Origin: a virus | Taxonomy: Duplodnaviria > Caudoviricetes | Reading direction: 5' to 3' (one strand) | DNA: 37,542 nucleotides | IMG/VR virus record: IMGVR_UViG_3300020460_000027 | Span: 1-37,542 of that record | Part shown: positions 4,816-37,542 of the stretch, one piece after another | Numbering within the stretch: position 1 is the first letter of the stretch | How the letters are laid out: each line of letters opens with the position of its first letter | Notes under the pieces: generated by a model | Database searches by the model: none | Seen by the model: only the letters and a program-made list of their open reading frames with translations | Told to the model about the DNA's origin: nothing | Made by a program: the position numbers and the translations under genes

Positions 4816-5186
4816 TGGCAGATCAAAGAATCGAATCAGCGCCTAATCAAACTTATGGAAAGCGTAAAGAACAAGAAGATTCACAACGAGTTGTTGCGAT
4901 GCACAAAGAACAAAATATAACTCCAGGTCAAATGGGATTACCTAATAGACCCTCAGAAAAACCTTCTGAACCTTTAACGGCTGGTGCTGCTATAGGTGCT
5001 GGACCTGGACCTGATATTTTGCCTCAACCTATGGGGTCTCCAGATAATGAATTGTCTGAACGGCTTGCTAGTTATTTACCTATTTTGGAAGCTAAAGCTG
5101 CTATGCCTGAAGCGACAGCGAATTTTCGTATGTTTGTGAGAAGGGTAAGACATGCTTCTAGCAAGTCATCGAATAGTCCTATCTAA
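4815..5186 (+). CDS. Hypothetical virion-associated protein
   Basis: 123 aa, overlapping stop/start on both sides; RPSEKPSEPLTAGAAIGAGPGP motif. Confidence 0.7.
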   Translation: MADQRIESAPNQTYGKRKEQEDSQRVVAMHKEQNITPGQMGLPNRPSEKPSEPLTAGAAIGAGPGPDILPQPMGSPDNELSERLASYLPILEAKAAMPEATANFRMFVRRVRHASSKSSNSPI

Positions 5187-8100
5187 TGGGGTTTTTTGAT
5201 CGGATAGGAAAACTTTGGGATGCTGGTTTTGAAGTTGGTCGCACCGCTGTTAATACTGTTGTTGATTTAGCTGAAGCTCCTTTCACTGAAGACGAATACG
5301 ATGGTTTTCTTGACACCATTTGGGGTGTCAGTAAAGATCGTGGTGTTGAGTTAATGCAACACACTATCGGTCCTGAAGGTGTCGGTGGTGTCCTAATTGG
5401 TGCTTTACCTAAACCTATTCGTGAAGGTGGCAATGTTGCTTTAGAAGGTTTGGAAACTGCTTATAGAGAAGCAATAGCTGAACCTATTAGCACGGTTGTG
5501 ACAATGGCTTCTTTAGGACAAGCTGAAGGAAGCGGTGGTTTTTTTGGTGACGATTGGGGAGTTTGGACTGATTCCGAAAAATGGAAACTAGCTTATAAAA
5601 TAGCTCAAGATCGTTCACCTGGACAAGCTGTAGCTTTAGCTTTTGCGACTGATGATATTCTTGATGACGAACAAGTTATGAAAGCTGAAAGTGAACAATG
5701 GTTTACTTATGTCAGCGGAACTTGGGATGCGGCTACTCGAATTTTTCTTTCTCCTGAGATTGTCGCCGGTGGTGGCGTTATGGCTGGTAGAGCGATTTCA
5801 AAACGAAATTCTTTTAACAATTATTTTAAAGAAGGCAGAGGTTTTTCAAAATTCTCTGATGACGTAGAAGAATTAGCTGTTACAACTGGGGCTAGAAACA
5901 CACGGAACAATCAACTTCTTTTAGACGAAAAAGACTTAGATGATTTTGCTGGAAAAATAAAAGAAAAATATTTTTTCGATCACCATGAAGGTGATGTTAT
6001 TTCTACTGAAATAGCCAGAGCAGTTATAGGCGGTGCTGAAACAGGATTTCAAGGTGGTAAAGAATCACTAGAAAATGTTATGCGTTTCTTTATGGGTGAC
6101 GCTTCTGCTATAAAAAACATTGAAAAACTTGAAGGAGCCGCTACCGCACACAGGTATCAGCAACTTTACAAGAACTCTAACCAAATTAAACAAAGCGTTC
6201 CTCCGGCATCTGTTGGTGGTCAAATGACTATTTTTGACGAAGCTCAAGATGGGACACTAACTTTAGCGCAAGGTTTAATTTCAGAAATGGATGATGCTCC
6301 TCATGTAATTAGAGCATTTGCTTCTATTGAAGAAGCTATTAAACCAACGATGAGAAAAAACTTTGTTCACAACGATAGAGTTCAACAGTTTTATAGATCG
6401 AATTGGACTATGGCACCTGTTCGTGTAGTTAGAGATATGCGCCCCCAGCATTTTGTTTGGGCTGGTGATGCTAACAGTGGTGAACAGGTAGCAAGGTTTA
6501 TGCGTGAAGCAGGTTTTGAAGCTGATGAAATAAGAAGGTTTCGTGGGCAATGGGCTAGAAGTGATATAGCTACGAGGGCTGAAGTTTTAGCTAGAACAGC
6601 TAACACTAAAGCGATTAGGAAAGTAGCTGAAAAGCATGTTAAACGCCCTAAGAACATGAGTAAAAAAGATTACGACAAAGAGATCACAAAATTTATAGAA
6701 GATTTTGAATATTCCCATGAGTCATTTGCGAAAGTTATGTCAGATGTCAGAAAGTATGATGCTGATAAAAACATAAGCACAATACATTTTAAAGATCCTG
6801 ATACTGGTATTGAAGAAATGCTTCAGGTTCCTTTAAACCCTTCTCAGCTTAAACAGTCTGTTGCTTTGGTTGATATCAAAAAAGTTGATAAAGCTATGAG
6901 GCGACAAGCATCAAAGATGCCAGATTTTATTTTTAAAGCAAATGACATTAGAGCGCAGAGCTTACATGAAATAATGAAACTTTGGCGACCAGCAGTTCTT
7001 CTTCGCCCTGCATGGGTAATGAGAGTTGTGGGTGACGAACAGTTGCGTATGTTTGCAAAAGTTGGAACAACTGAAAGAATGTGGAAACTTTTAAGCGAAG
7101 ACCGACCAAAGTATGTGCAAAAAGTTTTAGAAAATGCTCTTGTTAAAACTGGTGCAGTCACAATAAAAGGTGGCAAGGTTCAAATAGCTGGTTCTAAAAA
7201 ACTTACTGCTAGAAGAGCAGCGGTTACAGGTGGCATTGGATTGCTTGTAGCAGGACCAGTTGGTGCAGCTATAGGTGCGAGTGGTTCTTTAGCTAGAAAC
7301 ACTAGGGCGTTAAAACGGCTTAGGAAAACTTTAAGAATCAGAGAAGAAGCCAGAGTGTTATATGAAGGCGGTCAAGTAGCAAGAGCTAAAGAACTTTTAC
7401 AAGAAATAGGTGAAGGTCCACTAACTATAAGTAGAAGTACGGACATTCACGATTATGAGATAGCAGGTGCTTTTGGTGATGCGTTGGAACCAAATATTCT
7501 TGCGATGAAAGCTAATAGTGCTAATCGTACTTCAAGGTTTCTTTTAGGAAACACAGAAAAAGAAGTCTGGAATGAAGTGGATGAGATCATGGGCGATTGG
7601 ATGACTTATGAAGTTTCCGGTATAGGAACTTCCAAAGCCGCTGAAAAAAGATTTGGTGACTGGTGGGAAAGAGTTGTTAATGACCAATGGGCTAATAATC
7701 CTGTAGGCCAAATAGCTTTTAATCACAGGTTGGGTGATGCTTCCGTTAGGAAGCAAGCACTTATTGATTGGATGCACACTGATGCTGGTAAAGAGTTTGC
7801 TAAAAAAATTCCTAACAGAATAAAAAAAGATAAAAGTGGCAATCTTTTAACTGATGATATTGAAGATTGGGCTGAACAAGTTGTTCAAGCTACAGACAGA
7901 ATGGTTACAAACAAAGAAGTAGCTCAACTATTAGCTGATAGTCAAGGCAGTGTTCGTGTCACTCTTAAAGATCTTAAACGAATAGCTGAAAAAAATGGTG
8001 AAGATTGGAAACAGTATGTAGGTGATATTCATGGTCAACAAGGAATACAATTAGCTGATGATACTTTAAGAGCTAAAAAAGATCGTTTAGTTAATCGTCT

Positions 8101-9898
8101 TTTTGATCGACTAGGAACAGTCACAACAGACAATCTTTCAAGAAATCCTTATTTCAAAGCAGTATATGAAGAAGATATTTTAAGACGAGTTAAAGCATAT
8201 AAAACAACAAACGGTGATTATGCGTTAACTGAAGATGCTTTAAAAACTATTGAAGCTTCGTCAAGGCGTAAAGCATTAAATGAAACCCGTGACCTTCTAT
8301 ATGATTTAGCTGAACGATCAGAGTTTGCTGACATGATGAACAACATCATGCCTTTCTTCAACGCATATCAGGAAGTTCTTACTCGTTGGGCTGGACTAGC
8401 AATAGACAACCCAGTGTTCGTTTCTCGAATGTTGCAGACATTGAGAGCTAGACCCGATACAGATTGGTTCCAAATGGAAGAAGTGGATGGAGAAAGATAC
8501 TTCACGCTTCGGTTGCCAGAGTTCGCTTCTGAACTTGTGTCATCTGGAATGTTAGGAAACGCTTTTAAAGAACAGTCAACTATAAGGTTCCGTGCTGATT
8601 CAATAAACATGGTTACACAAATAGCACCTGGTGTTGGACCTATAGCTCAAATACCTGTTTCAGCTTTAGTTGTCACAGAACCAAAATTTGAAGAAGCTTT
8701 TAAATTTATACTTCCTTATGGTCCTGTCAGGGGAAGTAATATTTTAGAACAATCTTTTGATGCGCTACAACCAGCTTGGGTTAAACGTATAACAAGTGCT
8801 TTAAGTGAAAACAGGTCTTATGAAAGCACAGCCGCCACCATCATGCTCACTCGTATGGCTGAGATGGCTGATGGGGATAGAGACAAAATTGATTTTGGAG
8901 ATGGTAGCGAAAGAGCAAAGTTTATAGCTGGAGTTAAAGAAGATGCTAAGAATTTTCATTACTTGAAAGCGATTGCTTCAGCTTTTTCTCCTGCTTCTGT
9001 TGGGTTTCATTCGCCTTACCAACCTTATATAGATGAATACCGTAGGTTGAAAAAAGAAAATATTAAAACAGCAGATAAAAAGTTTATGGATTATTTGATT
9101 GCGGAAGGGGTAGAAGGCTTCTTTGCTTTAGCTGCACGTTTCTCAAAAAATAACGAAGGGCTTCCAGCTACTATAGAAAGTGAAGAAACTCGTACAAAAT
9201 ATATTGACATGATTCATAAATACCCTGAAATTGGTGGTTTGATTTTAGGAACAGAAGGTGGCGGTTCTGCTAAATGGTCTGCTGCTGTGTATGAAAAACA
9301 ACTTAGAGAAGACACTAGCCCAGGTTCAGGTGTTAAACGTCGTGAACGAATGTCTTTAGATGAAATTTTAACTGACAGCCGTGTACGTGAAGGCTGGGAA
9401 GAGTACGGGCGTATAAATGATATTATCTTTAATACAATGCGTGAACGTGGTCTTCCGAATCTTCGTGTAAAAGAAGCATCAGATTTGCTTTCTATTAAAC
9501 AACAAGCTGTCTTAAAGTTAGGTGAACGCTATCCTCTTTGGTATAAAGAATACAGTAATCCTGATTTAACTAAATGGACAACTCGTATTAAAGGAATGAG
9601 AGCAGTTGTCGCTGATGAGCGTTTAGCAGGTCGTGATGACATACAACTGTTAGCAAAATATCTTGAAATCAGAGATGCTTTTACAGGCGAGTTGTCTAAA
9701 CGTGGGGCTGCTGGTGGTTCTTCAACTATGGATTCTCGATCTAATCAAGATTTAAAAGTTGCGTGGGATTCAATAATGGATCAAATGATTGAGAATCCTA
9801 CGTTTGGTGACTTATTATGGAGATGGTTAGAGTTTGACCCTCTAACTTCTAATACCTGGCCAGGTTCACAACTGGACAATATGAGGAAAGCAGCATGA
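5186..9898 (+). CDS. Large putative internal virion / DNA ejection protein (1570 aa)
   Basis: Long ORF in structural operon with Gly-zipper hydrophobic patch AAVTGGIGLLVAGPVGAAIGA; function inferred from size and position. Confidence 0.55.
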   Translation: MGFFDRIGKLWDAGFEVGRTAVNTVVDLAEAPFTEDEYDGFLDTIWGVSKDRGVELMQHTIGPEGVGGVLIGALPKPIREGGNVALEGLETAYREAIAEPISTVVTMASLGQAEGSGGFFGDDWGVWTDSEKWKLAYKIAQDRSPGQAVALAFATDDILDDEQVMKAESEQWFTYVSGTWDAATRIFLSPEIVAGGGVMAGRAISKRNSFNNYFKEGRGFSKFSDDVEELAVTTGARNTRNNQLLLDEKDLDDFAGKIKEKYFFDHHEGDVISTEIARAVIGGAETGFQGGKESLENVMRFFMGDASAIKNIEKLEGAATAHRYQQLYKNSNQIKQSVPPASVGGQMTIFDEAQDGTLTLAQGLISEMDDAPHVIRAFASIEEAIKPTMRKNFVHNDRVQQFYRSNWTMAPVRVVRDMRPQHFVWAGDANSGEQVARFMREAGFEADEIRRFRGQWARSDIATRAEVLARTANTKAIRKVAEKHVKRPKNMSKKDYDKEITKFIEDFEYSHESFAKVMSDVRKYDADKNISTIHFKDPDTGIEEMLQVPLNPSQLKQSVALVDIKKVDKAMRRQASKMPDFIFKANDIRAQSLHEIMKLWRPAVLLRPAWVMRVVGDEQLRMFAKVGTTERMWKLLSEDRPKYVQKVLENALVKTGAVTIKGGKVQIAGSKKLTARRAAVTGGIGLLVAGPVGAAIGASGSLARNTRALKRLRKTLRIREEARVLYEGGQVARAKELLQEIGEGPLTISRSTDIHDYEIAGAFGDALEPNILAMKANSANRTSRFLLGNTEKEVWNEVDEIMGDWMTYEVSGIGTSKAAEKRFGDWWERVVNDQWANNPVGQIAFNHRLGDASVRKQALIDWMHTDAGKEFAKKIPNRIKKDKSGNLLTDDIEDWAEQVVQATDRMVTNKEVAQLLADSQGSVRVTLKDLKRIAEKNGEDWKQYVGDIHGQQGIQLADDTLRAKKDRLVNRLFDRLGTVTTDNLSRNPYFKAVYEEDILRRVKAYKTTNGDYALTEDALKTIEASSRRKALNETRDLLYDLAERSEFADMMNNIMPFFNAYQEVLTRWAGLAIDNPVFVSRMLQTLRARPDTDWFQMEEVDGERYFTLRLPEFASELVSSGMLGNAFKEQSTIRFRADSINMVTQIAPGVGPIAQIPVSALVVTEPKFEEAFKFILPYGPVRGSNILEQSFDALQPAWVKRITSALSENRSYESTAATIMLTRMAEMADGDRDKIDFGDGSERAKFIAGVKEDAKNFHYLKAIASAFSPASVGFHSPYQPYIDEYRRLKKENIKTADKKFMDYLIAEGVEGFFALAARFSKNNEGLPATIESEETRTKYIDMIHKYPEIGGLILGTEGGGSAKWSAAVYEKQLREDTSPGSGVKRRERMSLDEILTDSRVREGWEEYGRINDIIFNTMRERGLPNLRVKEASDLLSIKQQAVLKLGERYPLWYKEYSNPDLTKWTTRIKGMRAVVADERLAGRDDIQLLAKYLEIRDAFTGELSKRGAAGGSSTMDSRSNQDLKVAWDSIMDQMIENPTFGDLLWRWLEFDPLTSNTWPGSQLDNMRKAA

Positions 9899-10587
9899 GC
9901 GATTTAAATGACATAATGCAAGAGTTTGGGATTAGTCCTTTGAGCGTTCCTGAAAAAGATGTTCCTAGTCCTTTTGAAACATACGTAAGGTATAACGATC
10001 CTGATGCTGTGATTATTCCTGCTAGTGAAAGACCAGAAGCTCTTAAAGGGGCTATGGCTGGTACAGAACAAATAGGTGATTTAACTGTTGGTGATATTTA
10101 CCAACAATATTTTGATATGTCAGAAGATCAACGAAAATCTTTACATGAAAGATTGTTTGTAAGTGGTTTTTATTCTAAGTCCACTAAAACTGAAGACATT
10201 CATAATAAAGGACAGGCTGAAAATGCGTTTGTTTCAGCAGTTAATTTTTATGCGGCTCAAGGGATAAATCCTCTTTCACAAGAAGCTTTACCTACAAGAC
10301 CCATAGAAGTTGAATTAGAGGAAGAACCTGTTACACGGAGAGCTACTGAAGATCAGATTTCTACTTATGCTGACAGTGCTGCTAAAAACATTTTTGGTAG
10401 GGCTGCTTCTGATTCTGAAAAAGAATTAGCTGTGTCTATTTTTCGTAAGTTAGAGGATGATGAAGCAAGTTCTCCTGGTATGGGTGATTTAACAGAAGGG
10501 TTTAAAGCAGCTTCTCCAGAAGAAGCAGCTAATCGTCGTATGGCTAAAACATTGAATATGTTTCAAAAGATAGTTGCAGGTGCTTAA
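9895..10587 (+). CDS. Hypothetical virion protein
   Basis: 230 aa, ATGA overlap with the upstream gene. Confidence 0.65.
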   Translation: MSDLNDIMQEFGISPLSVPEKDVPSPFETYVRYNDPDAVIIPASERPEALKGAMAGTEQIGDLTVGDIYQQYFDMSEDQRKSLHERLFVSGFYSKSTKTEDIHNKGQAENAFVSAVNFYAAQGINPLSQEALPTRPIEVELEEEPVTRRATEDQISTYADSAAKNIFGRAASDSEKELAVSIFRKLEDDEASSPGMGDLTEGFKAASPEEAANRRMAKTLNMFQKIVAGA

Positions 10588-10589
10588 AT

Positions 10590-12455
10590 ATGAATGAAGC
10601 AATACAAATAGCAGTTGATGATGAGCGCCAGCGTTTAGAAAAAATTATTGAAGAAGCTGAAAAAAAACTTGTTCAAGCTAAAGATAATTTAGAAACTCAA
10701 CGTGGTCGTAATCGAGCTAGATATGACCAGAACGCCAAGATTGAAGCTATTGAAGAAATGGCTTCTATCGAAGTGGCTGATCTTGGCACTTCAACAAAAT
10801 TAAACAGTCTTACGGATAAACCTTCTCTTGATGTATTAGCAAGGTTGGAATTTTTGTTAACGGCAGCAGGGTATCCAATTCGTCAATCTGAAGAATCCCA
10901 AGAGTTGCTATCTTATAACCCAACTACAGATTCATCAGCTAGCAGTTTAGAAGTTGCTATCGCTGGGGGGTTAACTGTTGGCGGTTTAATTGAATGGATT
11001 GAAGACAACCGCCCTAAAGTTGGTCAACCTAAACAAGAAGCTCAGAAAGCTGTTGCTATAGCACAACAAGAATTAAAAAAAGCTGAAGACACTTTGGAAG
11101 CATTTGGTAACACAGATGAAGAACAGACAGCTTGGGTTCGTGATAAAGGATTAGTTACAGAAGACCAACTGCCTAGAAGTGAAAGAAAAGAATTTAGAGA
11201 GGCTTTACCAAATCCTTTAGTTGGTGAAAAACCAGAAATATCAGTAAGTGTTTTTACACCTCCAAAAGAAGTTGAAGTTCCTGAAATAATAGAGATTGAT
11301 ACCGCTGATTGGCCCACAAAAGCGATCGAAACTGAGATAAGTGAACTAGAGGAATCCCCCACCCTTGAGACAGGGACAGCTATTAAAACAAAAGAAAAAA
11401 ATATTATCACCGCTGGAGGAACAGAATTGGAAGATCCAGACCCTGCGTCATTGGGACAAGGGTTAGGAAAAATAGATTGGAAAGCTCTTGAATCTAAAGA
11501 CTGGTATAAAGGAATGTTTGGTGTGCCTGCTATACAGCAAGATGGTTCAGCAGAAATAAACATGACAGAGCCAGACGAAGTGATGAAACAGGTTCTTGGT
11601 TATGGAGGAAGATTTCTTACAACTGATTCTAATGATCCTTTGTTTGAGGTAGCTGAAATACTTCGCAAAGCTGCTGTTGAAGAATGGGATGAACTTACAC
11701 TTAAAGAAGCTTTGTTCCCTACTACTTGGTGGCAAAATACTGCTCCTAGAGCTAGAAATTTGCAAAAAACAGAATCGGTTGATCCAGCTAAAGCAAAAGC
11801 TTTATTAGCTCCTGCTTTGGAAAATGTTACAGAAACAGCAAATCAAATAGGCATAACATTAACCACAGAAAGAGCTTCACAAATTGCTAGAAGTTATTAC
11901 ATAGAAGAATGGGATGGTCCTCGTCTTCAAAACTATTTATTCATGGAAGCAGATTGGGATGTTGGCAAAGCAGGAGGGGTTGTTCAAGACAACTATAGAG
12001 TTGTGGATATTTTGTCAAATGATTACATGGTTGGGCATTTAATAGATCCTTCCATACGAGACACGTATGCTAAGAGACTTGCTACAGGTGAAGAAACAGA
12101 AGCAGGTTTAAGAGCAGAGTTCAGTAGAATGGCTGGTTCAGCATACGGTTTGATAGAAGATAGGCTTAATCAAGGGTATTCAACTCAAGAAATAATGGCT
12201 CCTTATCGTATGGAAATAGCCAGACAATTAGACATTCTTGATAGTAATAGTATTGATTTTGTTAATGATGAAAAATATATGCCGTTTTTAACTGGTGTAG
12301 GTGAAGGTGCTGGAATGATGACCATTGGGGCTGTAGGAGAATACATAAGAAAAAGTCCAAAATTACGACCTTTATGGGAAAGAACAGATTCAGCTAAAAG
12401 AAATGCTCGTTCATTTGCAGACTTTGTTACTCAGAAATTCGGAGGGTTAGGTTAA
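10590..12455 (+). CDS. Hypothetical virion protein (N-terminal coiled coil, acidic linker)
   Basis: 621 aa ORF in structural operon. Confidence 0.65.
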   Translation: MNEAIQIAVDDERQRLEKIIEEAEKKLVQAKDNLETQRGRNRARYDQNAKIEAIEEMASIEVADLGTSTKLNSLTDKPSLDVLARLEFLLTAAGYPIRQSEESQELLSYNPTTDSSASSLEVAIAGGLTVGGLIEWIEDNRPKVGQPKQEAQKAVAIAQQELKKAEDTLEAFGNTDEEQTAWVRDKGLVTEDQLPRSERKEFREALPNPLVGEKPEISVSVFTPPKEVEVPEIIEIDTADWPTKAIETEISELEESPTLETGTAIKTKEKNIITAGGTELEDPDPASLGQGLGKIDWKALESKDWYKGMFGVPAIQQDGSAEINMTEPDEVMKQVLGYGGRFLTTDSNDPLFEVAEILRKAAVEEWDELTLKEALFPTTWWQNTAPRARNLQKTESVDPAKAKALLAPALENVTETANQIGITLTTERASQIARSYYIEEWDGPRLQNYLFMEADWDVGKAGGVVQDNYRVVDILSNDYMVGHLIDPSIRDTYAKRLATGEETEAGLRAEFSRMAGSAYGLIEDRLNQGYSTQEIMAPYRMEIARQLDILDSNSIDFVNDEKYMPFLTGVGEGAGMMTIGAVGEYIRKSPKLRPLWERTDSAKRNARSFADFVTQKFGGLG

Positions 12456-18747: not shown

Positions 18748-19253
18748 TGGCTCATTTTGCTCAAATAGATGAAAATAATGTTGTTGTTTGTGTAACGGTT
18801 GTACCTGACAGAGAAGAACATCGAGGACACGATTTTCTAAATGAAATTGGTATCGAAGGTACTTGGATTCAAACTTCTTACAACACACATTGCAACAAAC
18901 ACGATCATGGGAAAACGCCTTTACATGGAAATTATGCAGGCATCGGGTTTCATTGGTTACCAGATGAAGAAATTTTTGTTCTGCCGAAACCTCATCCTTC
19001 ATGGATTTTGAACACAGAAACAGCAACGTGGGACCCTCCAGTAGCTTACGATAAAACAAAACACGAAGGTTATTGGTGGGATGAAGATGTTAAAAATTGG
19101 GTGAAACCACCTAAGCCACATCCTAATTGGATTTGGTCTGATGATATGTTTGAGGATTTTGCTGGTTGGGTACCGCCTGTAGAAGCACCCGCTGATGATG
19201 GTGAAACTGAATATGAATGGGATGAAGACTCGCAGACTTGGGTTGTGGTGTGA
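18747..19253 (+). CDS. Hypothetical Trp/Pro-rich protein (partner of glycine-rich fibre)
   Basis: MAHFAQIDENNVV...WIQTSYN...NYAGIG...PKPHPSW; repeated PxPHPxW and WDE units; TGATG overlap. Confidence 0.75.
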   Translation: MAHFAQIDENNVVVCVTVVPDREEHRGHDFLNEIGIEGTWIQTSYNTHCNKHDHGKTPLHGNYAGIGFHWLPDEEIFVLPKPHPSWILNTETATWDPPVAYDKTKHEGYWWDEDVKNWVKPPKPHPNWIWSDDMFEDFAGWVPPVEAPADDGETEYEWDEDSQTWVVV

Positions 19254-19942
19254 AGTTATTAGAACGCAACAAAGAAGGTAAAAGAATTGCGAAACTATTT
19301 GAAGAAAATTTCGTTAAAGAAAAGTCGGAATTAGAATTCACAAAAGATTTTATTTGTATCTATAAAACAGAACAGAATCTTGGTTGCGAAGACATTATTG
19401 CAAGAGCTAACCAAGCAGACGAATGGAAGGCATCTGAAGTAGTTGGCGGTTCTTATTCAGGAAAAGAATCTACTGGAGAAGTAGACAGCAATAACCGTGA
19501 TTCTCAACAGGTTGGTTTTGAAGCACACAACTGTCCTGCTCACCATTTGGATGTCCTTAATTTTGCTTCACGTTCGTTGGATAGTTATTTATTAAAATTT
19601 CCGCAAGCTAATTTGTTTCCAGAATTTCGACAACGAGAACCTTACAACTTGATTAAATACAAAGAAGGTCAGGCGTTCCATGACGTACATTCTGACTATT
19701 ACCCTTTTGGTACTTTAAGTCGCCGTCATCTCACAGGCATCGTTTTTTTAAACAAAGTCGTAAAAGGCGGTGAGCTTTATTTCCCGCATCAAGATTTAAC
19801 AGTCAAAGCAGAACTGGGGAAAATGATTATTTTTCCATCAGGTTGGACTCATGCTCATAAGACATTCCCACCCATAAACCAAGAACGCTACGTGCTTCAG
19901 TTGTGGTGGAGTTTCGAGACAGACGATTCAGAAACAGAGTAA
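19250..19942 (+). CDS. 2OG-Fe(II) oxygenase (prolyl-4-hydroxylase-like)
   Basis: HxD (HSD), FLN...GGEL.F, IIFPS, distal H (THAH) and RY motifs; GTGA overlap. Confidence 0.88.
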   Translation: MKLLERNKEGKRIAKLFEENFVKEKSELEFTKDFICIYKTEQNLGCEDIIARANQADEWKASEVVGGSYSGKESTGEVDSNNRDSQQVGFEAHNCPAHHLDVLNFASRSLDSYLLKFPQANLFPEFRQREPYNLIKYKEGQAFHDVHSDYYPFGTLSRRHLTGIVFLNKVVKGGELYFPHQDLTVKAELGKMIIFPSGWTHAHKTFPPINQERYVLQLWWSFETDDSETE

Positions 19943-30515: not shown

Positions 30516-31073
30516 ATGACTTCTCTTTTGCTTGCCGTGATTGTTGCCGTGAACTCTATGGTTGTGATACCTGAGATAGTGGATCAAGAATATCGTATGT
30601 ATGAGCGTGGTTCTCATATCGTGGAGTTACAAAAAGAAATAGGTGGAGTTCAGGTTGATGGGATTTATGGACCGAAGACTAGAGCGAAACATATTGCTTC
30701 TGTTGGTGGTGGAGTAGCTGCTGTTTACAGGTGGTACGGGTTCACACCTTTAACGAACAACACTAAACCTTTAAGCGTTCTAATAGATGAGTATTTTAAA
30801 ACAGAATCAGATCGTCTATGGGCGACACGGGTTGCTTTCTGTGAATCGTCTGCTTTGCCGCATCATGTTCGCTCCACTGCTGTTTCACCTGCTCTAGCTG
30901 TCGGAGCTATGCAAAACCTTATGCGTTACTGGTCAAGCCGTGCCGTTTCAGCAGGTTTGTCGGCTGATGCTTCTCCTTACGATTTAGAAAATAACATAAG
31001 GGTAGCTGCACATTTGTTTTACACCTCAGGTAAACATCATTGGAATCCTTCTAAGAAATGTTGGGGGAAATAA
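30516..31073 (+). CDS. Secreted/anchored lytic transglycosylase-like protein with PG-binding motif
   Basis: Hydrophobic N-terminus, LQ...VDGIYGPKT, catalytic-like VAFCESS, GAMQ, ENNIRVAAHL, HW. Confidence 0.7.
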   Translation: MTSLLLAVIVAVNSMVVIPEIVDQEYRMYERGSHIVELQKEIGGVQVDGIYGPKTRAKHIASVGGGVAAVYRWYGFTPLTNNTKPLSVLIDEYFKTESDRLWATRVAFCESSALPHHVRSTAVSPALAVGAMQNLMRYWSSRAVSAGLSADASPYDLENNIRVAAHLFYTSGKHHWNPSKKCWGK

Positions 31074-31075
31074 TA

Positions 31076-31831
31076 ATGCAACAAGCTCACCAAAAAATTG
31101 TTAGAGAAAAAATGAAAACAGAAGATTCTTTCAATCTGTTTGGTGACTGGTGGGAAGACATAGAAGTAGACATTAAAAAAGCAGTTGTTAAACCGATTGA
31201 TTACAAGACGGCTGCGAGTGTGATTATCAAGTATGAGTGGCTTGGTTGTATGCCTGCGATGGTTAAGTATTGTTTCGGTATTTACTTTGACGGCAATCTA
31301 GGTGGCGCTGTTGTTTACAGCACGGAATATATAGAGAACTTAGGTAAGTGGGATAAGTACGATTACACAGGCAAGATCATTCTCTTATCAAGGGGCGCTT
31401 GTGTTCATTGGGCTCATCCTCATAGTGCCAGCAAACTAATAACAAGTTCGATGAAAATGCTCCCTGAGAAATACAAAGTCGTGACTGCTACTGTCGATGA
31501 ACACGCTGGCGAGATAGGAACTATCTATCAAGCCTGCAACTTTGTTTATATAGGTTCTATGCGAGACAACAATCCAAATGTGAACAGCAGAAAAGATGAC
31601 AGGTTTGGAGTTGAGATTGACGGCAAGTTATATACCGCTCGCTCCATGAGGCAGAAGGTCGGTTCACAAAAAAAGGAAGACATTTTAAATGTTTATCCTC
31701 ACGCCGTGTTTGTACCTCAAGCTAGTAAGAAAAGGTACTTTTATTTTCTTGGGAATAAGAAAGAGAGACAATACCACCGGAGTCAAATAGAAGATCAAAT
31801 TCAACCGTACCCAAAAAGAGATTTGTTATGA
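31076..31831 (+). CDS. Mom-like DNA modification protein (GNAT fold)
   Basis: IIKYEWLG...FGIYFDGNLGGAVVY...LSRGAC...ASKLI...GEIGTIYQACNFVYIG...KKRYFYFL. Confidence 0.75.
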   Translation: MQQAHQKIVREKMKTEDSFNLFGDWWEDIEVDIKKAVVKPIDYKTAASVIIKYEWLGCMPAMVKYCFGIYFDGNLGGAVVYSTEYIENLGKWDKYDYTGKIILLSRGACVHWAHPHSASKLITSSMKMLPEKYKVVTATVDEHAGEIGTIYQACNFVYIGSMRDNNPNVNSRKDDRFGVEIDGKLYTARSMRQKVGSQKKEDILNVYPHAVFVPQASKKRYFYFLGNKKERQYHRSQIEDQIQPYPKRDLL

Positions 31832-32165: not shown

Positions 32166-32210
32166 TTTTGTTTATACACATTTCACTCCAATCGTTTTGT
32201 GTAAACAAAA
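32166..32210 (+). ncRNA. Candidate antisense hairpin RNA presenting CUCCAAUCGU (complement of the early-gene RBS motif)
   Basis: 13-bp stem 32166-32178/32198-32210 (U-G pair valid only on +); loop contains CTCCAATCGT at 32186-32195. Confidence 0.5.
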
Positions 32211-32236
32211 AACCCCCCGATTATGGGGGGTTTTTT
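32207..32236. terminator. Bidirectional intrinsic terminator between convergent operons
   Basis: AAAAAA-CCCCCC-GATTAT-GGGGGG-TTTTTT. Confidence 0.9.
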
Positions 32237-32257: not shown

Positions 32258-33205
32258 TTATGCGGCTTTACGTTTTAGTCGCCGTATCTCAGCTTTGAGT
32301 TCAGCAACTTCTTCCCGTAGGGCTTTGACCCTACAAGCTTCTGCATTGTTTTCTTTGTACGAAATGCTTTCCAAATGGTCAATGTTCACACACGCTCTTT
32401 CCCCACAGATATGGTGTATCTGGTTTCCTTCAGGGATAGTTTCGTTGTTGGCTACTTCCCAGACTTTTCGATGGGTAGCAATCCGAGTCAACCCTTCTCC
32501 ATCTTTCGCTATGCAAATAGACCCGTAACCTGATTCCATTTTGGTGTGTTGCCAAACTAAACAACCGTTGTTGTTTGGCTTCACGTACCCATTTTGAGGA
32601 TCTAAATAGAAAGCAATAGTTTCAGTCCAGTCTAAATGAAACAAAGTAGGGCGTAACTTTCTACCTGCTTCAAAAGTTTTATTTTTGTACCATCTTGCCC
32701 CATGTCCCTGACAAATCTCACCGTATTCGATTGATTTTGGGTCAAACTTTGAAGGATCTTTAAGCCCTACATATCCTTTGTCTGTGACTCGACCACATGG
32801 GGTTCCTTTGGAATCTATAGGCACCATGCAAGTGCTGTTGCGAGGTAAGGATTGAACTAACGGAACATCAGGGTACGTGTCTCCGTATTTGTCTAATCGT
32901 TTAGCATGACCACGACAATGATCGTCAGTCTGTGTTCTTTGTTTAAATGAACAGCCCTTAACTATGCAGTTTTTATATTGTTGTTCTTTAATCAGTAGGG
33001 TTTTGCTACCCAGACAGCAACGCCGATTCTGATGTTTCTTAGCAGCACGTTGAGCGTTACCAAGTGTTGCATATCTTGGTTCCCCACAGCGAGCGCACTT
33101 CACATGCAAGGGTATTTGCGAATCTCCACTGTATGGCTCTAGTGGAATATATTCACATGCTCGCATTATCTTGTCGGCTTCTTCTACTGTATGTTTATTC
33201 GGCAT
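32258..33205 (-). CDS. HNH endonuclease with Cys/His-rich N-terminal domains
   Basis: CLVWQ...GYG...THRKVW...IHHICGERACVNIDHL...ENN; several Cys/His zinc-knuckle motifs upstream. Confidence 0.88.
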   Translation of the reverse strand: MPNKHTVEEADKIMRACEYIPLEPYSGDSQIPLHVKCARCGEPRYATLGNAQRAAKKHQNRRCCLGSKTLLIKEQQYKNCIVKGCSFKQRTQTDDHCRGHAKRLDKYGDTYPDVPLVQSLPRNSTCMVPIDSKGTPCGRVTDKGYVGLKDPSKFDPKSIEYGEICQGHGARWYKNKTFEAGRKLRPTLFHLDWTETIAFYLDPQNGYVKPNNNGCLVWQHTKMESGYGSICIAKDGEGLTRIATHRKVWEVANNETIPEGNQIHHICGERACVNIDHLESISYKENNAEACRVKALREEVAELKAEIRRLKRKAA

Positions 33206-33699
33206 TACGCTATCTCCATCTTCGGAGCTTGTTTAGCACGACTGTTTTTCAAGTGAGCATCAACTTCAGGATCGTCGTCGCCTATGTCGTAACGAACATT
33301 ACGTTCTTGAAAACCGACAGGTATCTGTGAGTCTTTAGTCCATACCCATAAATGGTACTCGTTAGCTGTATCAACAACTCTAGACTCAGCAGGATAAAGC
33401 TCAAGTGCTTCACGCTCGTCACCAAAAATGTCGTTTTTAATCTGCTGGAAATGTCGCCAAGGTCGATTCGTTGCCCGTGTATGAGAGTGAATACACATTT
33501 GGCAAATACCATCACGACCTAACTCTTTGTTTAAGTATCTGATTGTTGCCTGATACCTGTCGTTTATCCAAACTTCGTCAGGCATGTCACCATGAAACTT
33601 ATCTTTTATTTTTTCATAGATGTTATCGTCAGCTAGTTGAGCGGCTTGCATACGCATCCAAGCCTTAGCTTTAGTTGGGGCTTTACGTTTCTTACCCAT
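33205..33699 (-). CDS. Hypothetical early protein
   Basis: ATG 33699 after ACGATTGGAGAA; WRHFQQIKNDIFG...ELYPAESRVVDTANEYHLW. Confidence 0.8.
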   Translation of the reverse strand: MGKKRKAPTKAKAWMRMQAAQLADDNIYEKIKDKFHGDMPDEVWINDRYQATIRYLNKELGRDGICQMCIHSHTRATNRPWRHFQQIKNDIFGDEREALELYPAESRVVDTANEYHLWVWTKDSQIPVGFQERNVRYDIGDDDPEVDAHLKNSRAKQAPKMEIA

Positions 33700-33717
33700 T
33701 GTTTTATTCTCCAATCG

Positions 33718-33778
33718 TGGTCTGTCTCATCAGTATGTGGTGACCAATCCACATAGACACCCTTACGGGTGTTTCAAC
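33718..33778 (-). ncRNA. Type II hammerhead ribozyme HHR-A (cut between 33756 and 33755)
   Basis: GUU-GAAAC-ACCC-GUAA-GGGU-GUC^UAUGUGG-AUUGGUCA-CCACAUA-CUGAUGA-GAC-AGACCA; pseudoknot UGGUC/GACCA. Confidence 0.88.
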
Positions 33779-34004
33779 TAGCTTTCCTTCCGGTTTCAAG
33801 TAACCATTTTTCAACGTCAGCTTTAAGGAAAAAAACTAACCCCCATCTTCTAATAACTGAAGAAGGAAAATCATTACTGTTAATCCAGTAAGTAATATTT
33901 GATTTATGCACCCCTTCTTTTTTTGCTATATCTGACAAGGTGATTAACTCCGATAAACGGTAATCGTTTATATTTATTTCAGGTCGAGGAGGAACTAATT
34001 GCAT
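33774..34004 (-). CDS. AlpA/excisionase-like HTH protein
   Basis: LITLSDIAKKEGVHKSNITYW...DFP...FLKADVEKWL; GGAG SD. Confidence 0.75.
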   Translation of the reverse strand: MQLVPPRPEININDYRLSELITLSDIAKKEGVHKSNITYWINSNDFPSSVIRRWGLVFFLKADVEKWLLETGRKAS

Positions 34005-34413
34005 CTTCTCCACCCCCTGTCACGAAAGTACCAACATTGACGTTGACAACATCTTGAGTCATTTCACGAACATGCTCATCGTGTCCGTTTACTTTGTATT
34101 CAAGGTCGGCGTAAAATCTTTGAACGACTTTCCATTTGCGTGAAGCTTTAGAAATCACGTAAGTACCGTTGTCGCCATTGTCGTAATCAAGGTTTTTGAT
34201 TACATCAACGTAAACGCTTGAATTGCCTCCGAACCAGTTGCCTATCATTTGAATGAACCTTGCAGGCTCGTTGACACCCAAAGCTGATGCCGCTTGACAA
34301 AAAGCTTCAATGGACTCAATACCACCGTTCCAATGAAGGTAAATGCCTACCTGTGATGTATCCAAAATGCTCTCAGATGAATCTTGAAAACTTATTACCG
34401 CTCTATTTCCCAT
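33979..34413 (-). CDS. Hypothetical early protein
   Basis: MGNRAVI...GIYLHWNGG...DNGTYVI; AGGAG SD. Confidence 0.8.
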   Translation of the reverse strand: MGNRAVISFQDSSESILDTSQVGIYLHWNGGIESIEAFCQAASALGVNEPARFIQMIGNWFGGNSSVYVDVIKNLDYDNGDNGTYVISKASRKWKVVQRFYADLEYKVNGHDEHVREMTQDVVNVNVGTFVTGGGEDAISSSST

Positions 34414-34753
34414 GATTGTTCTCCTTTCGTTCTGTCATAGATATAACTGGTCTAGGTGAATTGATAATTTCTTTTTTAACAATCTCATCTCTAACTTTGT
34501 AAATGTTTACACAACACTTCCTTAAAGAAAGATCGATTTCTTCTAACTCTTGAAGCCATAAAGCAAAACGTGGTTTCAAGTCTTCCCAAGCTTGATCTCT
34601 TGTTACAGATAAAGCCGACAGGATAGCGTCGTCTCTAAAATAAGGATGACATTTTATAGAAGCCTCGACACTTGTCTCTAAGTGTTTAGCATTTATTAGT
34701 ATTTCTTTTAGCCGCTCGGTTATTCCGGCGACTGGTTCAAATGGTTCTATCAT
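34403..34753 (-). CDS. Hypothetical early protein
   Basis: ATG 34753 after ATGATTGGAGAA. Confidence 0.75.
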   Translation of the reverse strand: MIEPFEPVAGITERLKEILINAKHLETSVEASIKCHPYFRDDAILSALSVTRDQAWEDLKPRFALWLQELEEIDLSLRKCCVNIYKVRDEIVKKEIINSPRPVISMTERKENNHGK

Positions 34754-34772
34754 TTGTATTTCTCCAATCATT

Positions 34773-34834
34773 TGGTCTATCTCTTCAGCGTTAAGAGACC
34801 ATCCTTAACGGACACTCCGAAGAGTGTTTCGATA
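34773..34834 (-). ncRNA. Type II hammerhead ribozyme HHR-B (cut between 34811 and 34810)
   Basis: UAUC-GAAAC-ACUC-UUCG-GAGU-GUC^CGUUAAG-GAUGGUCU-CUUAACG-CUGAAGA-GAUA-GACCA. Confidence 0.93.
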
Positions 34835-34987
34835 TTATTTACAAACCGGCGCTATTAGTTCCGGATCGGTTGTATCAGGACAAAACGGTTCATAATTTTT
34901 TGGGTCGTCAATCCATGCAACTATCATTAAACATGAGATAAGCAACCCAATATAAACACGCTCTTTTAATGTCAACTTATTAGTCAT
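34835..34987 (-). CDS. Small membrane protein
   Basis: MTNKLTLKERVYIGLLISCLMIVAWID; GAGGAG SD. Confidence 0.65.
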   Translation of the reverse strand: MTNKLTLKERVYIGLLISCLMIVAWIDDPKNYEPFCPDTTDPELIAPVCK

Positions 34988-35291
34988 TTTCAAACTCCTC
35001 TCTAAGCTGCCATGTAGTTCTCTTGTGCCATTTGTGTTCAAATAGTCCAAGCTCTATCAATTTATTACCGGCTTGATTAAGTCGTTCTATAGCGTGACTT
35101 AATCGAGTGTTTTCTGGGTTATAAATATGTCCCATGTTGTGAGCGTCATCGAGATAAATGCACATAGTTTGATCGTGCTGTGCATCGAGAAACTCTCTAA
35201 CGTAAAACAATATTTTTGTATCCTGTCCGGAATCAAATTTTAGAATTGCTTCTTGGCAATCTCCGGATATACCCTCTAAAACTAATTTCAT
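34980..35291 (-). CDS. Hypothetical early protein
   Basis: 103 aa; GGGAG SD. Confidence 0.7.
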   Translation of the reverse strand: MKLVLEGISGDCQEAILKFDSGQDTKILFYVREFLDAQHDQTMCIYLDDAHNMGHIYNPENTRLSHAIERLNQAGNKLIELGLFEHKWHKRTTWQLREEFEND

Positions 35292-35330
35292 TTTATTCTC
35301 CCTCTCTTTTCTTGTGCTTCTGTCATTGTT

Positions 35331-35498
35331 TTATTCGCCATATTCACACGCTCCGCAGATGTAATCCGCTGTGTAGATATTGCCGACATAAACACCATGC
35401 CTGCAATAATCTTTGTCAGGGATCGGTTCGACATCACTATCTAACACTTGACCTGTTCTAGCCTCTCTAAGTATTTCCTCTACTGACAATTCAGCCAT
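35331..35498 (-). CDS. Small putative zinc-binding protein (55 aa)
   Basis: ATG 35498 after ACGATTGGAGAA; CRHG...CGACE. Confidence 0.75.
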   Translation of the reverse strand: MAELSVEEILREARTGQVLDSDVEPIPDKDYCRHGVYVGNIYTADYICGACEYGE

Positions 35499-35514
35499 TA
35501 GTTTTCTCCAATCG

Positions 35515-35575
35515 TGGTCTATCTCTTCAGTGACTAGAGACCATCCTAGCCAGACACCCTTACGGGTGTTTCGAT
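35515..35575 (-). ncRNA. Type II hammerhead ribozyme HHR-C (cut between 35553 and 35552)
   Basis: AUC-GAAAC-ACCC-GUAA-GGGU-GUC^UGGCUAG-GAUGGUCU-CUAGUCA-CUGAAGA-GAU-AGACCA. Confidence 0.93.
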
Positions 35576-36000
35576 TAGTTCGTGTAAAGAGTTTCAAAAG
35601 GAAATGTCTCTTGAAAATAATCTCTAAGCCATACCGCCCAATCAAGATGTGTAATATCTCTTCTAGCGTTATCAAACCAATCTTTATAAACAAACTCTAT
35701 TTTTCCGAGTGTGCATATACCATATTGCATGTTGAAAGTTTTAGGGTAAAAACGGATCTCTTCAGAAGGTCCGCCCCAAGAGATCAGATATTTAAGATAG
35801 GGTAGCTCCCCTTCTTTAATCTCTTGCCAATCTAGAGACAAACCGTACTCATGGAATCTAGTAGTAGCGTCGTCTTGCTCGACGATCATATCGCTAGACT
35901 CCATGCCCTCGATCATGTCCTGAAAGTCTTCGCCCCTGCTTACGATTGCGTCGTCGATAACGGCTTCGCAATTTACAGTTAGCCCGTTTGATTTATTCAT
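35575..36000 (-). CDS. Hypothetical acidic early protein
   Basis: EYGLSLD...YLISWGGPSEEIRF...YKDWFD; ACGATTGGAG upstream. Confidence 0.8.
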   Translation of the reverse strand: MNKSNGLTVNCEAVIDDAIVSRGEDFQDMIEGMESSDMIVEQDDATTRFHEYGLSLDWQEIKEGELPYLKYLISWGGPSEEIRFYPKTFNMQYGICTLGKIEFVYKDWFDNARRDITHLDWAVWLRDYFQETFPFETLYTN

Positions 36001-36017
36001 TGTTATTTCTCCAATCG

Positions 36018-36077
36018 TGGTCTATCTCATCAGTAGCTAGAGACCATCCTAGCCAGACGCTCTAAGAGCGTTTCGAT
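36018..36077 (-). ncRNA. Type II hammerhead ribozyme HHR-D (cut between 36056 and 36055)
   Basis: AUC-GAAAC-GCUC-UUA-GAGC-GUC^UGGCUAG-GAUGGUCU-CUAGCUA-CUGAUGA-GAU-AGACCA. Confidence 0.92.
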
Positions 36078-37100
36078 TTAGGCAACCTCCTTTAATGCTA
36101 CGGCTTCGTAAGATGACTCCTGAGCGTCTTCGTAGCCTTCAGAAGCTCCGACCCCTTCCATCTTGTCTAAAATGTAACTCGCTGCTTTCTGGGCATCCGT
36201 TCCGGCTTTCCAAAGTAGCTGGGCTCCATCTTCACCCTCTAACGCTCTTATCCAACTTTTAAGATAAGAAGCGTGATTATCTAGCGGCTGATGCTCGACA
36301 CCTAAAACGTTAGCTAGAAACACTCCGCAGAGTTCAGCTATTAGCTCTTCAAACGCATATTTAGCGTCACCGAAACGACCTTCTAAATCTCTATTAAGAC
36401 GGCTTTCGTATCCTGACCAGTGACCAAATTCATGCCCTACAGTAGAGACCCATTCTGAGAGGCTAATAAATTGGTCAGCTATCGGGGTTATGATTTTATC
36501 TTGCGAAGGGATAAAGCAGGCTCTATCGCCGCCGTTCTCCTCTTTCCAATTAGCTCCTACTTTAAGGAACTCTGACCGGATCTTTTCAACCTGCTCATCA
36601 TTTGTTAATTCGGTCTCCTCGACTCTTACAGGCAGTGAAGGATGCTCTGGTTTTTCACCCTCTAACGCCTCGACTTGTGAAGCATTAAAAACGGTATAAG
36701 TACGCTCTAACAAAACCTTTTTCATTTTGTGGTTTTCTTTGCAAGTCTTCCCAATATTAAAAAGACCTTTACAAGGTGTCTCCTCGTTGCAAACCATCTT
36801 AGGAGCCCAATAAATAATCTCGGTTCCTCGCTCGCCCTTCTGAACTTGGCAGCCTTTACTTTGCCACTGTTTGTAAGTAGCAAACCGCCCATCCTCCCAG
36901 CCTTCACAACTCTTAGCCATACTCAAGACTAAAACGTTAGAACCCTTATAGATAGTCTTCGTAATTGGGTTATGCGGAACCTCGAAACCGTGGACAGCTA
37001 CCCAAGATTTGGTCCAACTTTTAGGATTGTTTTTAAGTAACTCAATAAGGTTTTCGGTTAGTCCCTGAGCTACTTTCCTAACCTTCTCATTTGTAAACAT
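36078..37100 (-). CDS. ardC: ArdC-like antirestriction protein (ssDNA-binding N-domain plus zincin-like domain)
   Basis: W.KSW, NPITKTIYKGSN, FATYKQW...QVQKGE, TVFNASQ, HEFGHWSG..SRLNR, YAFEELIAE, HASYLKSW. Confidence 0.9.
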   Translation of the reverse strand: MFTNEKVRKVAQGLTENLIELLKNNPKSWTKSWVAVHGFEVPHNPITKTIYKGSNVLVLSMAKSCEGWEDGRFATYKQWQSKGCQVQKGERGTEIIYWAPKMVCNEETPCKGLFNIGKTCKENHKMKKVLLERTYTVFNASQVEALEGEKPEHPSLPVRVEETELTNDEQVEKIRSEFLKVGANWKEENGGDRACFIPSQDKIITPIADQFISLSEWVSTVGHEFGHWSGYESRLNRDLEGRFGDAKYAFEELIAELCGVFLANVLGVEHQPLDNHASYLKSWIRALEGEDGAQLLWKAGTDAQKAASYILDKMEGVGASEGYEDAQESSYEAVALKEVA

Positions 37101-37131
37101 TTAACTACTCCAATCGTTAATATTTTTGATT

Positions 37132-37158: not shown

Positions 37159-37461
37159 AAAAACAACAACACCGGCGAAAAATTTCTTATTACCCTGACT
37201 CCCTACCCGTCAAAAACCCCATAACAAAAACCCAGAAGCCCAGAAAAAAAACCTAGAAAAAAAACAAAACCAAACCCAGAAATCGATCAAGTCTCGCCGT
37301 AATTGCGTCGTGCGAGTAGCTCGAAACATCGACCAACGGGAGATGTGGCGAGATACCGCACGCACGCACGATGATTAACGGTGTATTTGTGACTTTGCTT
37401 CTAGTGTTTTGGTTGTTTTTGTTGTGTTGTTTTGTGTGGTGTTTGTTTGGTCTTGTGGGGG

Positions 37462-37542
37462 GAGGTGGGGGTGGGGGTTTTTTTTGTTTGGTTGGTGGTT
37501 TTTGTGGTTTGGTATCCCCTGGGACTCCCTCCGTCGATTGAG
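37462..37542. repeat. Terminal overlap (copy 2)
   Basis: Matches 1-82 except for one G. Confidence 0.95.

Follow-up and report, generated by a model that had tools for sequence, protein, structure and literature searches.

Type II hammerhead ribozymes between the genes of a putative early operon in an uncultured marine phage

Gene order and the four ribozymes

The window, i.e., the whole 37,542-nt stretch of DNA analysed here, is a nearly full-length phage record (completeness, 97%; end overlap, 82 nt) that encodes terminase, capsid and amidase as well as two WhiB genes. The presence of the latter suggests that the host is probably an actinobacterium; searches against prokaryote genomes and GenBank phages returned no match and, hence, no host name. 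Ten genes, all on the minus strand, form a run that opens with ardC (37100) and closes with an HNH endonuclease gene (32258). Four hammerhead ribozymes, HH1 to HH4, lie on the same strand within 2.4 kb and split this run into ArdC, g2, g3-g5, g6-g8 and g9-g10, so that 1, 3 and 3 genes lie between successive ribozymes. In the order of the minus strand, the features are as follows:

37108..37115, minus strand: start motif GATTGGAG before ardC, the first gene of the unit, without a ribozyme
36078..37100, minus strand: ardC (block 1), ArdC-type anti-restriction protein of 340 aa (PF08401 and PF18818; phrog_7245)
36016..36078, minus strand: HH1, type II hammerhead, cut predicted at 36056/36055 (Rfam and descriptor)
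36009..36016, minus strand: GATTGGAG, start-associated or ribosome-binding motif after HH1
35575..36000, minus strand: g2 (block 2), 141 aa, function unknown (phrog_36747); predicted fragment, 503 nt
35513..35576, minus strand: HH2, type II hammerhead, cut predicted at 35553/35552 (Rfam and descriptor)
35506..35513, minus strand: GATTGGAG motif after HH2
34835..35498, minus strand: g3 (55 aa), g4 (103 aa) and g5 (50 aa) (block 3); predicted fragment, 742 nt
34771..34834, minus strand: HH3, type II hammerhead with a 4-bp stem II, cut predicted at 34811/34810 (Rfam and descriptor)
34762..34769, minus strand: GATTGGAG motif after HH3
33774..34753, minus strand: g6 (116 aa), g7 (144 aa) and g8 (76 aa) (block 4); predicted fragment, 1055 nt
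33716..33779, minus strand: HH4, type II hammerhead, cut predicted at 33756/33755 (Rfam and descriptor)
33709..33716, minus strand: GATTGGAG motif after HH4
32258..33699, minus strand: g9 (164 aa, DUF7694) with g10 (315 aa, HNH endonuclease) (block 5); about 1.55 kb as far as the terminator
32213..32230, no strand assigned: terminator-like hairpin with T-runs on both strands, a consensus match only

The hairpin at 32213..32230 marks the meeting point of the minus-strand unit and the plus-strand genes, and a consensus promoter scan upstream of ardC found none. No family match is seen for g3, g4 and g5; g8 is an excisionase/AlpA-like HTH protein (phrog_66). The label "early operon", given to this unit in an earlier note on this DNA, follows from gene content and position and is used here in a putative sense.

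The nine gene junctions fall into three kinds: four carry a ribozyme and have gaps of 74 to 81 nt, four overlap, and the remaining one, g3-g4, has a 39-nt gap without a ribozyme that is filled by a 12-codon frame. Ribozymes are thus found at four of the five gapped junctions and at none of the four overlapping ones, so that the earlier description of ribozymes punctuating the operon applies to four junctions but not to the other five. The same note had each ribozyme spanning the distance from the upstream stop codon to the next ribosome-binding motif, which is what is seen. In each of the four copies, the stop codon abuts or overlaps stem II and the core; that of HH4 (TGA, 33776-33774) does not lie before the core but includes its G12 and A13 in hammerhead numbering. 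The distance from the cut site to the start codon is 54 to 57 nt in all four cases.

The Infernal scan that the earlier note proposed, run with the Rfam type II model RF02276 (Hammerhead_II; gathering cut-off, 37 bits), gives scores of 52.4, 49.9, 49.8 and 44.7 bits for HH1, HH2, HH3 and HH4, respectively, all above the cut-off and at the places where the note had put four minus-strand ribozymes with intact cores. Across the 37.5-kb window, Rfam reports exactly these four matches, all on the minus strand, and no family besides Hammerhead_II. An independent structural descriptor, applied to the whole window, recovers the same four ribozymes and none extra, and it puts C17 at 36056, 35553, 34811 and 33756, in exact agreement with the cut sites named in the note. 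When the window was dinucleotide-shuffled 100 times, this descriptor matched nothing in 95 shuffles and once in 5; as it was drawn from these related copies, these counts are not probabilities. A core pattern in type I/III order matches twice in the window versus 0.66 expected, which is not significant.

All four copies contain the GAAAC element and the GUC triplet, with the core in the form CUGAUGA in two and CUGAAGA in the other two. In the window copies, loops close stems I and III and stem II is open. HH1 has a stem II of 3 bp, a stem III of 6 bp, a stem I of 7 to 8 bp and a pseudoknot of 5 to 6 bp; stem II of HH4 is closed by a U-G pair. The pairing was followed through eight distinct but related copies (four from the window, three from the sister contig L100 and one from L104) and is kept in all 168 cells. 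Stems I and III covary as the earlier note had it: both sides have changed in 9 of the 21 pairs, 6 of them in stem I, 2 in stem III and 1 in stem II. The loop-I/3'-tail pseudoknot UGGUC/GACCA is also present as proposed, with 5 to 6 bp possible in all four window copies; its 5 pairs are invariant in all eight copies, and covariation here is shown only in other phages. The Rfam scores, the shuffles and the compensatory pairing rule out chance or artefact as the source of the four motifs. They share with RF02276 the canonical core, the GUC triplet, the short stem II and the loop-I/3'-tail pseudoknot, with no structural difference found; HH4 has the peculiarity of the U-G closing pair and of a core that overlaps a stop codon. 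Judged by sequence and pairing, these are four genuine type II hammerheads between phage genes, and they are probably active, i.e., self-cleaving.

The motif GATTGGAG, at which the ribozymes end, is found in seven copies genome-wide, all on the minus strand and none on the plus strand (0.31 expected per strand), each of them shortly 5' of an ATG. Four of the seven are fused to a ribozyme. Start-associated sequences that precede the start codons of non-structural genes have been described in cluster K mycobacteriophages (PMC3203893). As portrayed there, they resemble GATTGGAG in being phage-wide, in a single orientation and a few bases before ATG, and in the GAT-GGAG core. However, GATTGGAG has other flanks and no inverted repeats are seen. 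With two mismatches allowed, it does not match the 13-bp cluster K consensus GGGATAGGAGCCC, and only the central GAT-GGAG is common to the two. The likeness is a resemblance only.

Strain variants and the module in other phages

A metagenome scan returned seven stretches on three contigs. One contig (L102-L104) is nearly identical to the window, another (L098-L100) represents a sister strain, and L101 has no descriptor match. All four ribozymes recur at the corresponding junctions of the sister strain. Over 247 nt they show 5 changes, each of which lies in a loop or preserves a pair, against 2 to 21% third-position divergence in five flanking genes. Among the runs, stem I of HH1 shows a G-U to A-U change in three of four, and stem III of HH3 in one strain carries five clustered changes, after which it resembles HH2 and HH4.

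The genes are less constant. In the sister strain, g3 is replaced, with the breakpoint directly after the HH2 start motif (35502) and the incoming gene ending 1 nt before g4. Contigs of the runs X10 and X8 show a replacement at the same point, and those of X5 and X11 also stop there. The gene g7, with no adjacent ribozyme, is replaced in the sister strain and deleted in X5, and an X5 contig has a joint that skips the HNH gene at a junction without a ribozyme. A further apparent X5 joint, from 35572 to 34740, comes from HH4 being aligned onto HH2 (HH4 lies outside that stretch) and is not an event. Gene content thus changes around ribozymes that persist, and it does so at ribozyme borders as well as elsewhere.

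A pattern taken from the shared pseudoknot retrieved 58 viral stretches, of which 3 belong to this genome and were dropped. The remaining 55 loci are a biased set, seeded by a motif from these copies, and include near-duplicate phages, as no dereplication was applied. At least one module is found in 48 of the 55 and at least two in 17; the modules are co-oriented in all 17 multi-copy loci. The densest arrays have 13 (L048) and 14 (L066) modules in 12 kb, with 18 and 11 Rfam matches in the respective records. By current counts, the four copies in the window are a small array. A pseudoknot of at least 4 bp is possible in 76 of the 77 distinct modules from these loci. Among the 36 modules that lack the seed, the pseudoknot covaries: 35 allow at least 4 bp, versus a mean of 11.7 (maximum, 19) with swapped tails. 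The packing between stop and start codons recurs as well: 47 of the 77 modules (61%) have an upstream stop at most 10 nt away, versus 333 of 2745 other GAAA sites (12%), and in 65 an SD-like word is found 3' of the module. By crude gene calls in 11 of the 17 multi-copy loci, single genes make up 24 of 40 cassettes, and the gap is at most 10 nt at 17 of 27 inner junctions.

The g9 gene is found at 91 to 95% identity in seven other loci, with no ribozyme before it in any of them; it is used there without one, indicating that this gene does not need a ribozyme. Five fragmentary records with the DUF7694 gene contain no hammerhead, these records being 7 to 43% complete. Five further relatives, with a capsid protein 94 to 97% identical, also have no hammerheads, which is uninformative because the most complete of them ends inside its early region; the part of that region that is present has other genes and no GATTGGAG. 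Among the other hammerhead loci, matches to the ten genes are limited to ArdC (L037 and L051) and the HNH domain (L068). In both L037 and L051, the ArdC-like gene directly follows a hammerhead.

Known hammerhead arrays

The earlier note had been unable to say whether such an arrangement had been described. It was, with the same proposed role, in 2011: Perreault et al. (PMC3088659) report hammerhead clusters that flank single genes or short blocks in prophages, with triples in Agrobacterium, Azorhizobium and Clostridium, an anti-restriction gene noted next to clustered hammerheads, and cleavage of clustered arrays in vitro and in Escherichia coli. The role proposed there is processing into operon- or gene-length mRNAs. 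Three type II hammerheads near phage-like genes have been detected as cleaved in Desulfovibrio, one of them weakly (PMC8782182). According to PMC6765202, the purpose of bacterial and phage self-cleaving ribozymes is still undefined.

The arrangement in the window is therefore not new; it is an ordinary example of a layout known in phages since 2011. Like the arrays of Perreault et al., it has tandem hammerheads on the gene strand that set off single genes or short blocks in a phage context, and the flanked genes vary between genomes, here through replacement of g3 and g7 in the sister strain. Unlike the arrays as described in PMC3088659, it consists of four copies that are all of type II, the phage is marine and uncultured and has two WhiB genes, and the anti-restriction gene is ArdC rather than ArdA and precedes the first ribozyme. 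Cleavage was shown for the published arrays and is predicted for the present one. Its additions are modest: conservation in a sister strain, the placement of the ribozymes at non-overlapping junctions of the operon, and a stop-ribozyme-start geometry that extends across phages. With its natural strain variants the locus makes a neat example, but it is no easier a test case for the role of such ribozymes than the known arrays, the phage and its host being, according to the searches, apparently uncultured.

Possible consequences of cleavage

The best reading of the locus is the self-processing polycistron of the earlier note, and near-identical arrangements cleave in vitro and in E. coli (PMC3088659). 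It is likely, on the evidence of cores, pairing and placement, that the ribozymes cut constitutively and without any protein, giving five gene-block mRNAs that would benefit from protected ends and from insulation. A promoter above ardC would yield a single minus-strand transcript of about 4.9 kb that runs to the terminator near 32213. Each ribozyme would fold as it is synthesized and cut after GUC, during or soon after transcription, giving internal fragments of 503, 742 and 1055 nt. The upstream piece would retain a whole reading frame and have the stem III hairpin at its end, which would carry a 2',3'-cyclic phosphate, whereas the piece downstream would start with a fully paired 5'-OH stem I, followed by the pseudoknot and the start motif, as a uniform leader of 54 to 57 nt. 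Because the two halves are joined by only 3 to 4 bp of stem II, release would be expected rather than re-ligation. Each block could thus have its own standard leader and its own decay clock, insulated from the upstream gene. Points against this reading are the negative promoter scan above ardC, a predicted competing helix in HH1, HH2 and HH4 that could slow cutting, and the use of g9 in other loci without a ribozyme.

The part of the earlier proposal that regarded a 5'-OH end as a poor substrate for RNase J is not safe. The glmS ribozyme leaves a 5'-OH product that RNase J1 degrades (10.1101/2023.03.12.532304), so that stabilisation is not automatic, and protection of the new 5' end would rest on base-pairing. 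This result, along with the 5'-OH trimming activity described in Bacillus and the differing fragment stabilities that PMC6765202 names as a possibility, favours the opposite view, in which the cuts are destabilising entry points for host nucleases and produce a short pulse or graded amounts of ArdC and the small proteins. However, stem I starts at the cut and leaves the new 5' end without unpaired bases, the new 3' end is a hairpin, and a strong shared start motif comes after every cut, which makes such a role unlikely. A paired 5' end and a 3' hairpin are the anatomy of ends protected from RNase J, RNase E and 3' exonucleases. It is unlikely, too, that the ribozyme and start motif are kept mainly as a recombination handle, or portable leader, for swaps of early genes, with cutting as a secondary property. 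The g3 breakpoints and contig ends at 35502 would fit this idea, as would the clustered HH3 changes, which are of the kind that copy conversion would give. But the other end of the g3 swap lies at a junction without a ribozyme, as do the g7 replacement and deletion and the HNH-skipping joint; no ribozyme-to-ribozyme joint is seen among the joints listed for five runs, and neither compensatory stems nor an intact core would be needed for such a role.

The position of the stop codons on stem II and the core, with the start motif abutting the pseudoknot, could also be read as the mark of a ribozyme that senses translation. A ribosome at the upstream stop, or a competing helix that involves the start motif, would block folding, ribosome traffic would time each cut, and cutting would free the start motif from the helix; cleavage would then report on or switch the translation of neighbouring genes, and the ribozymes would replace translational coupling at chosen junctions. 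A nearest-neighbour model without tertiary contacts predicts a helix of this kind, formed by the 5' flank with the start motif, in three of the four copies; it would be more stable than stem II by 3.1 (HH1), 6.7 (HH2) and 5.2 (HH4) kcal/mol, and it is absent in HH3. Across the 77 modules, own flank-leader pairs show no enrichment over swapped ones (-2.27 versus -2.07 kcal/mol). In 33, 8, 76 and 14 of 77 cases, a foreign flank pairs with the window leader as well as the leader's own flank does. Since it is not enriched over these controls, the helix is a possible brake on cutting and not a switch, and a selected conformational switch is unsupported. Tight packing alone accounts for the stop-codon positions in the window and in the 47 other modules with a nearby stop. 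Translation gating is accordingly improbable in all of these forms; were it demonstrated, a natural ribozyme would have acquired a new use in regulation. Least credible is the closure of inter-ribozyme fragments into circular mRNAs, either by reassembled ribozyme halves or by a host RtcB-type ligase. Internal fragments would indeed carry the 5'-OH and 2',3'-cyclic phosphate that RtcB joins, and neighbouring copies have stem II strands that are compatible with each other. Yet the weak pairing of the halves and the paired state of both ends argue against it, Perreault et al. report that their search for circular and spliced products was negative (PMC3088659), and no RNA ligase family was matched among the subset of window ORFs scanned.

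Constitutive processing into gene-block mRNAs would have parallels in known systems. In phage T7, the long early message is cut between genes by host RNase III, and RiboJ is an engineered insulator. The unit described here would resemble the former in that a long early message is cut between genes and the latter in having a standard 5' leader that is independent of the upstream sequence. Unlike T7 processing, it would require no host enzyme and would leave a 5'-OH and a cyclic phosphate instead of a 5'-phosphate and a 3'-OH.

Hammerhead arrays and pairings in other viral loci

Two other viral loci carry arrays of type II hammerheads that are much larger than the array in the window (HH1 to HH4). 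L048 (positions 3542-11352; full record G006) contains 13 such ribozymes and L066 (entire locus; full record G007) contains 14, in each case within 12 kb and built from the same module as in the window. Both arrays mostly have one hammerhead per gene, with many and varied pseudoknot sequences; the full records G006 and G007 yield 18 and 11 Rfam matches, respectively. In two other phages, one locus each, a type II hammerhead is paired with an ArdC-like gene, echoing the published ardA association of hammerheads:

L037, 5293-4326: type II hammerhead, GUU triplet, ~110 to 130 nt before an ArdC-like gene
L051, 1975-995: type II hammerhead, GUU triplet, ~110 to 130 nt before an ArdC-like gene

Strain variation in the ribozymes and the terminator-like hairpin

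The contig L104 is nearly identical to the window, and all 3 differences in 8393 nt are located in HH1 (L104 positions 25-87). Two of these make stem I of HH1 identical to that of HH2: either one copy may have converted the other, or the closeness of the contig end may have affected the assembly. Sequencing run X5 shows 5 clustered changes at window positions 34816-34823, including one compensated pair, that turn stem III of HH3 into a hairpin resembling those of HH2 and HH4. The hairpin that resembles a two-way terminator (window 32207-32236) has an inverted loop in the sister strain (L100 4990-5019), as a flip of the palindrome would give.

Start motifs, DUF7694, and other genes

The (AC)GATTGGAG start motif also occurs without a ribozyme at three window sites, the last of which stands before a gene with an upstream promoter-like TGnTACAAT site:

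37115, minus strand: precedes ardC
32193, minus strand: precedes a 33-codon frame just beyond the putative terminator
14568, minus strand: precedes a lone 150-aa minus-strand gene midway along the structural region

The DUF7694 gene (window 33205-33699; L004 to L010) is found on differing phage backbones at 91 to 95% identity and evidently moves between them. In L004 the HNH gene has moved along with it, and outside the window (L004 to L010) it abuts or overlaps the gene upstream. Three other phage genes are listed here by window position:

629-883: 4Fe-4S ferredoxin, adjoining the terminase
19238-19942: 2OG-Fe(II) oxygenase, amid tail genes
31058-31831: Mom-like DNA modification gene

The place of the Mom-like gene is occupied in the related phage G001 by two larger genes (L095 5921-8339), whose N termini, judged by eye, look like cytosine methyltransferases. 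A long, strand-biased, G/T-rich low-complexity stretch spans the genome ends (window 37250-37542 and 1-700) and is also present in G001.
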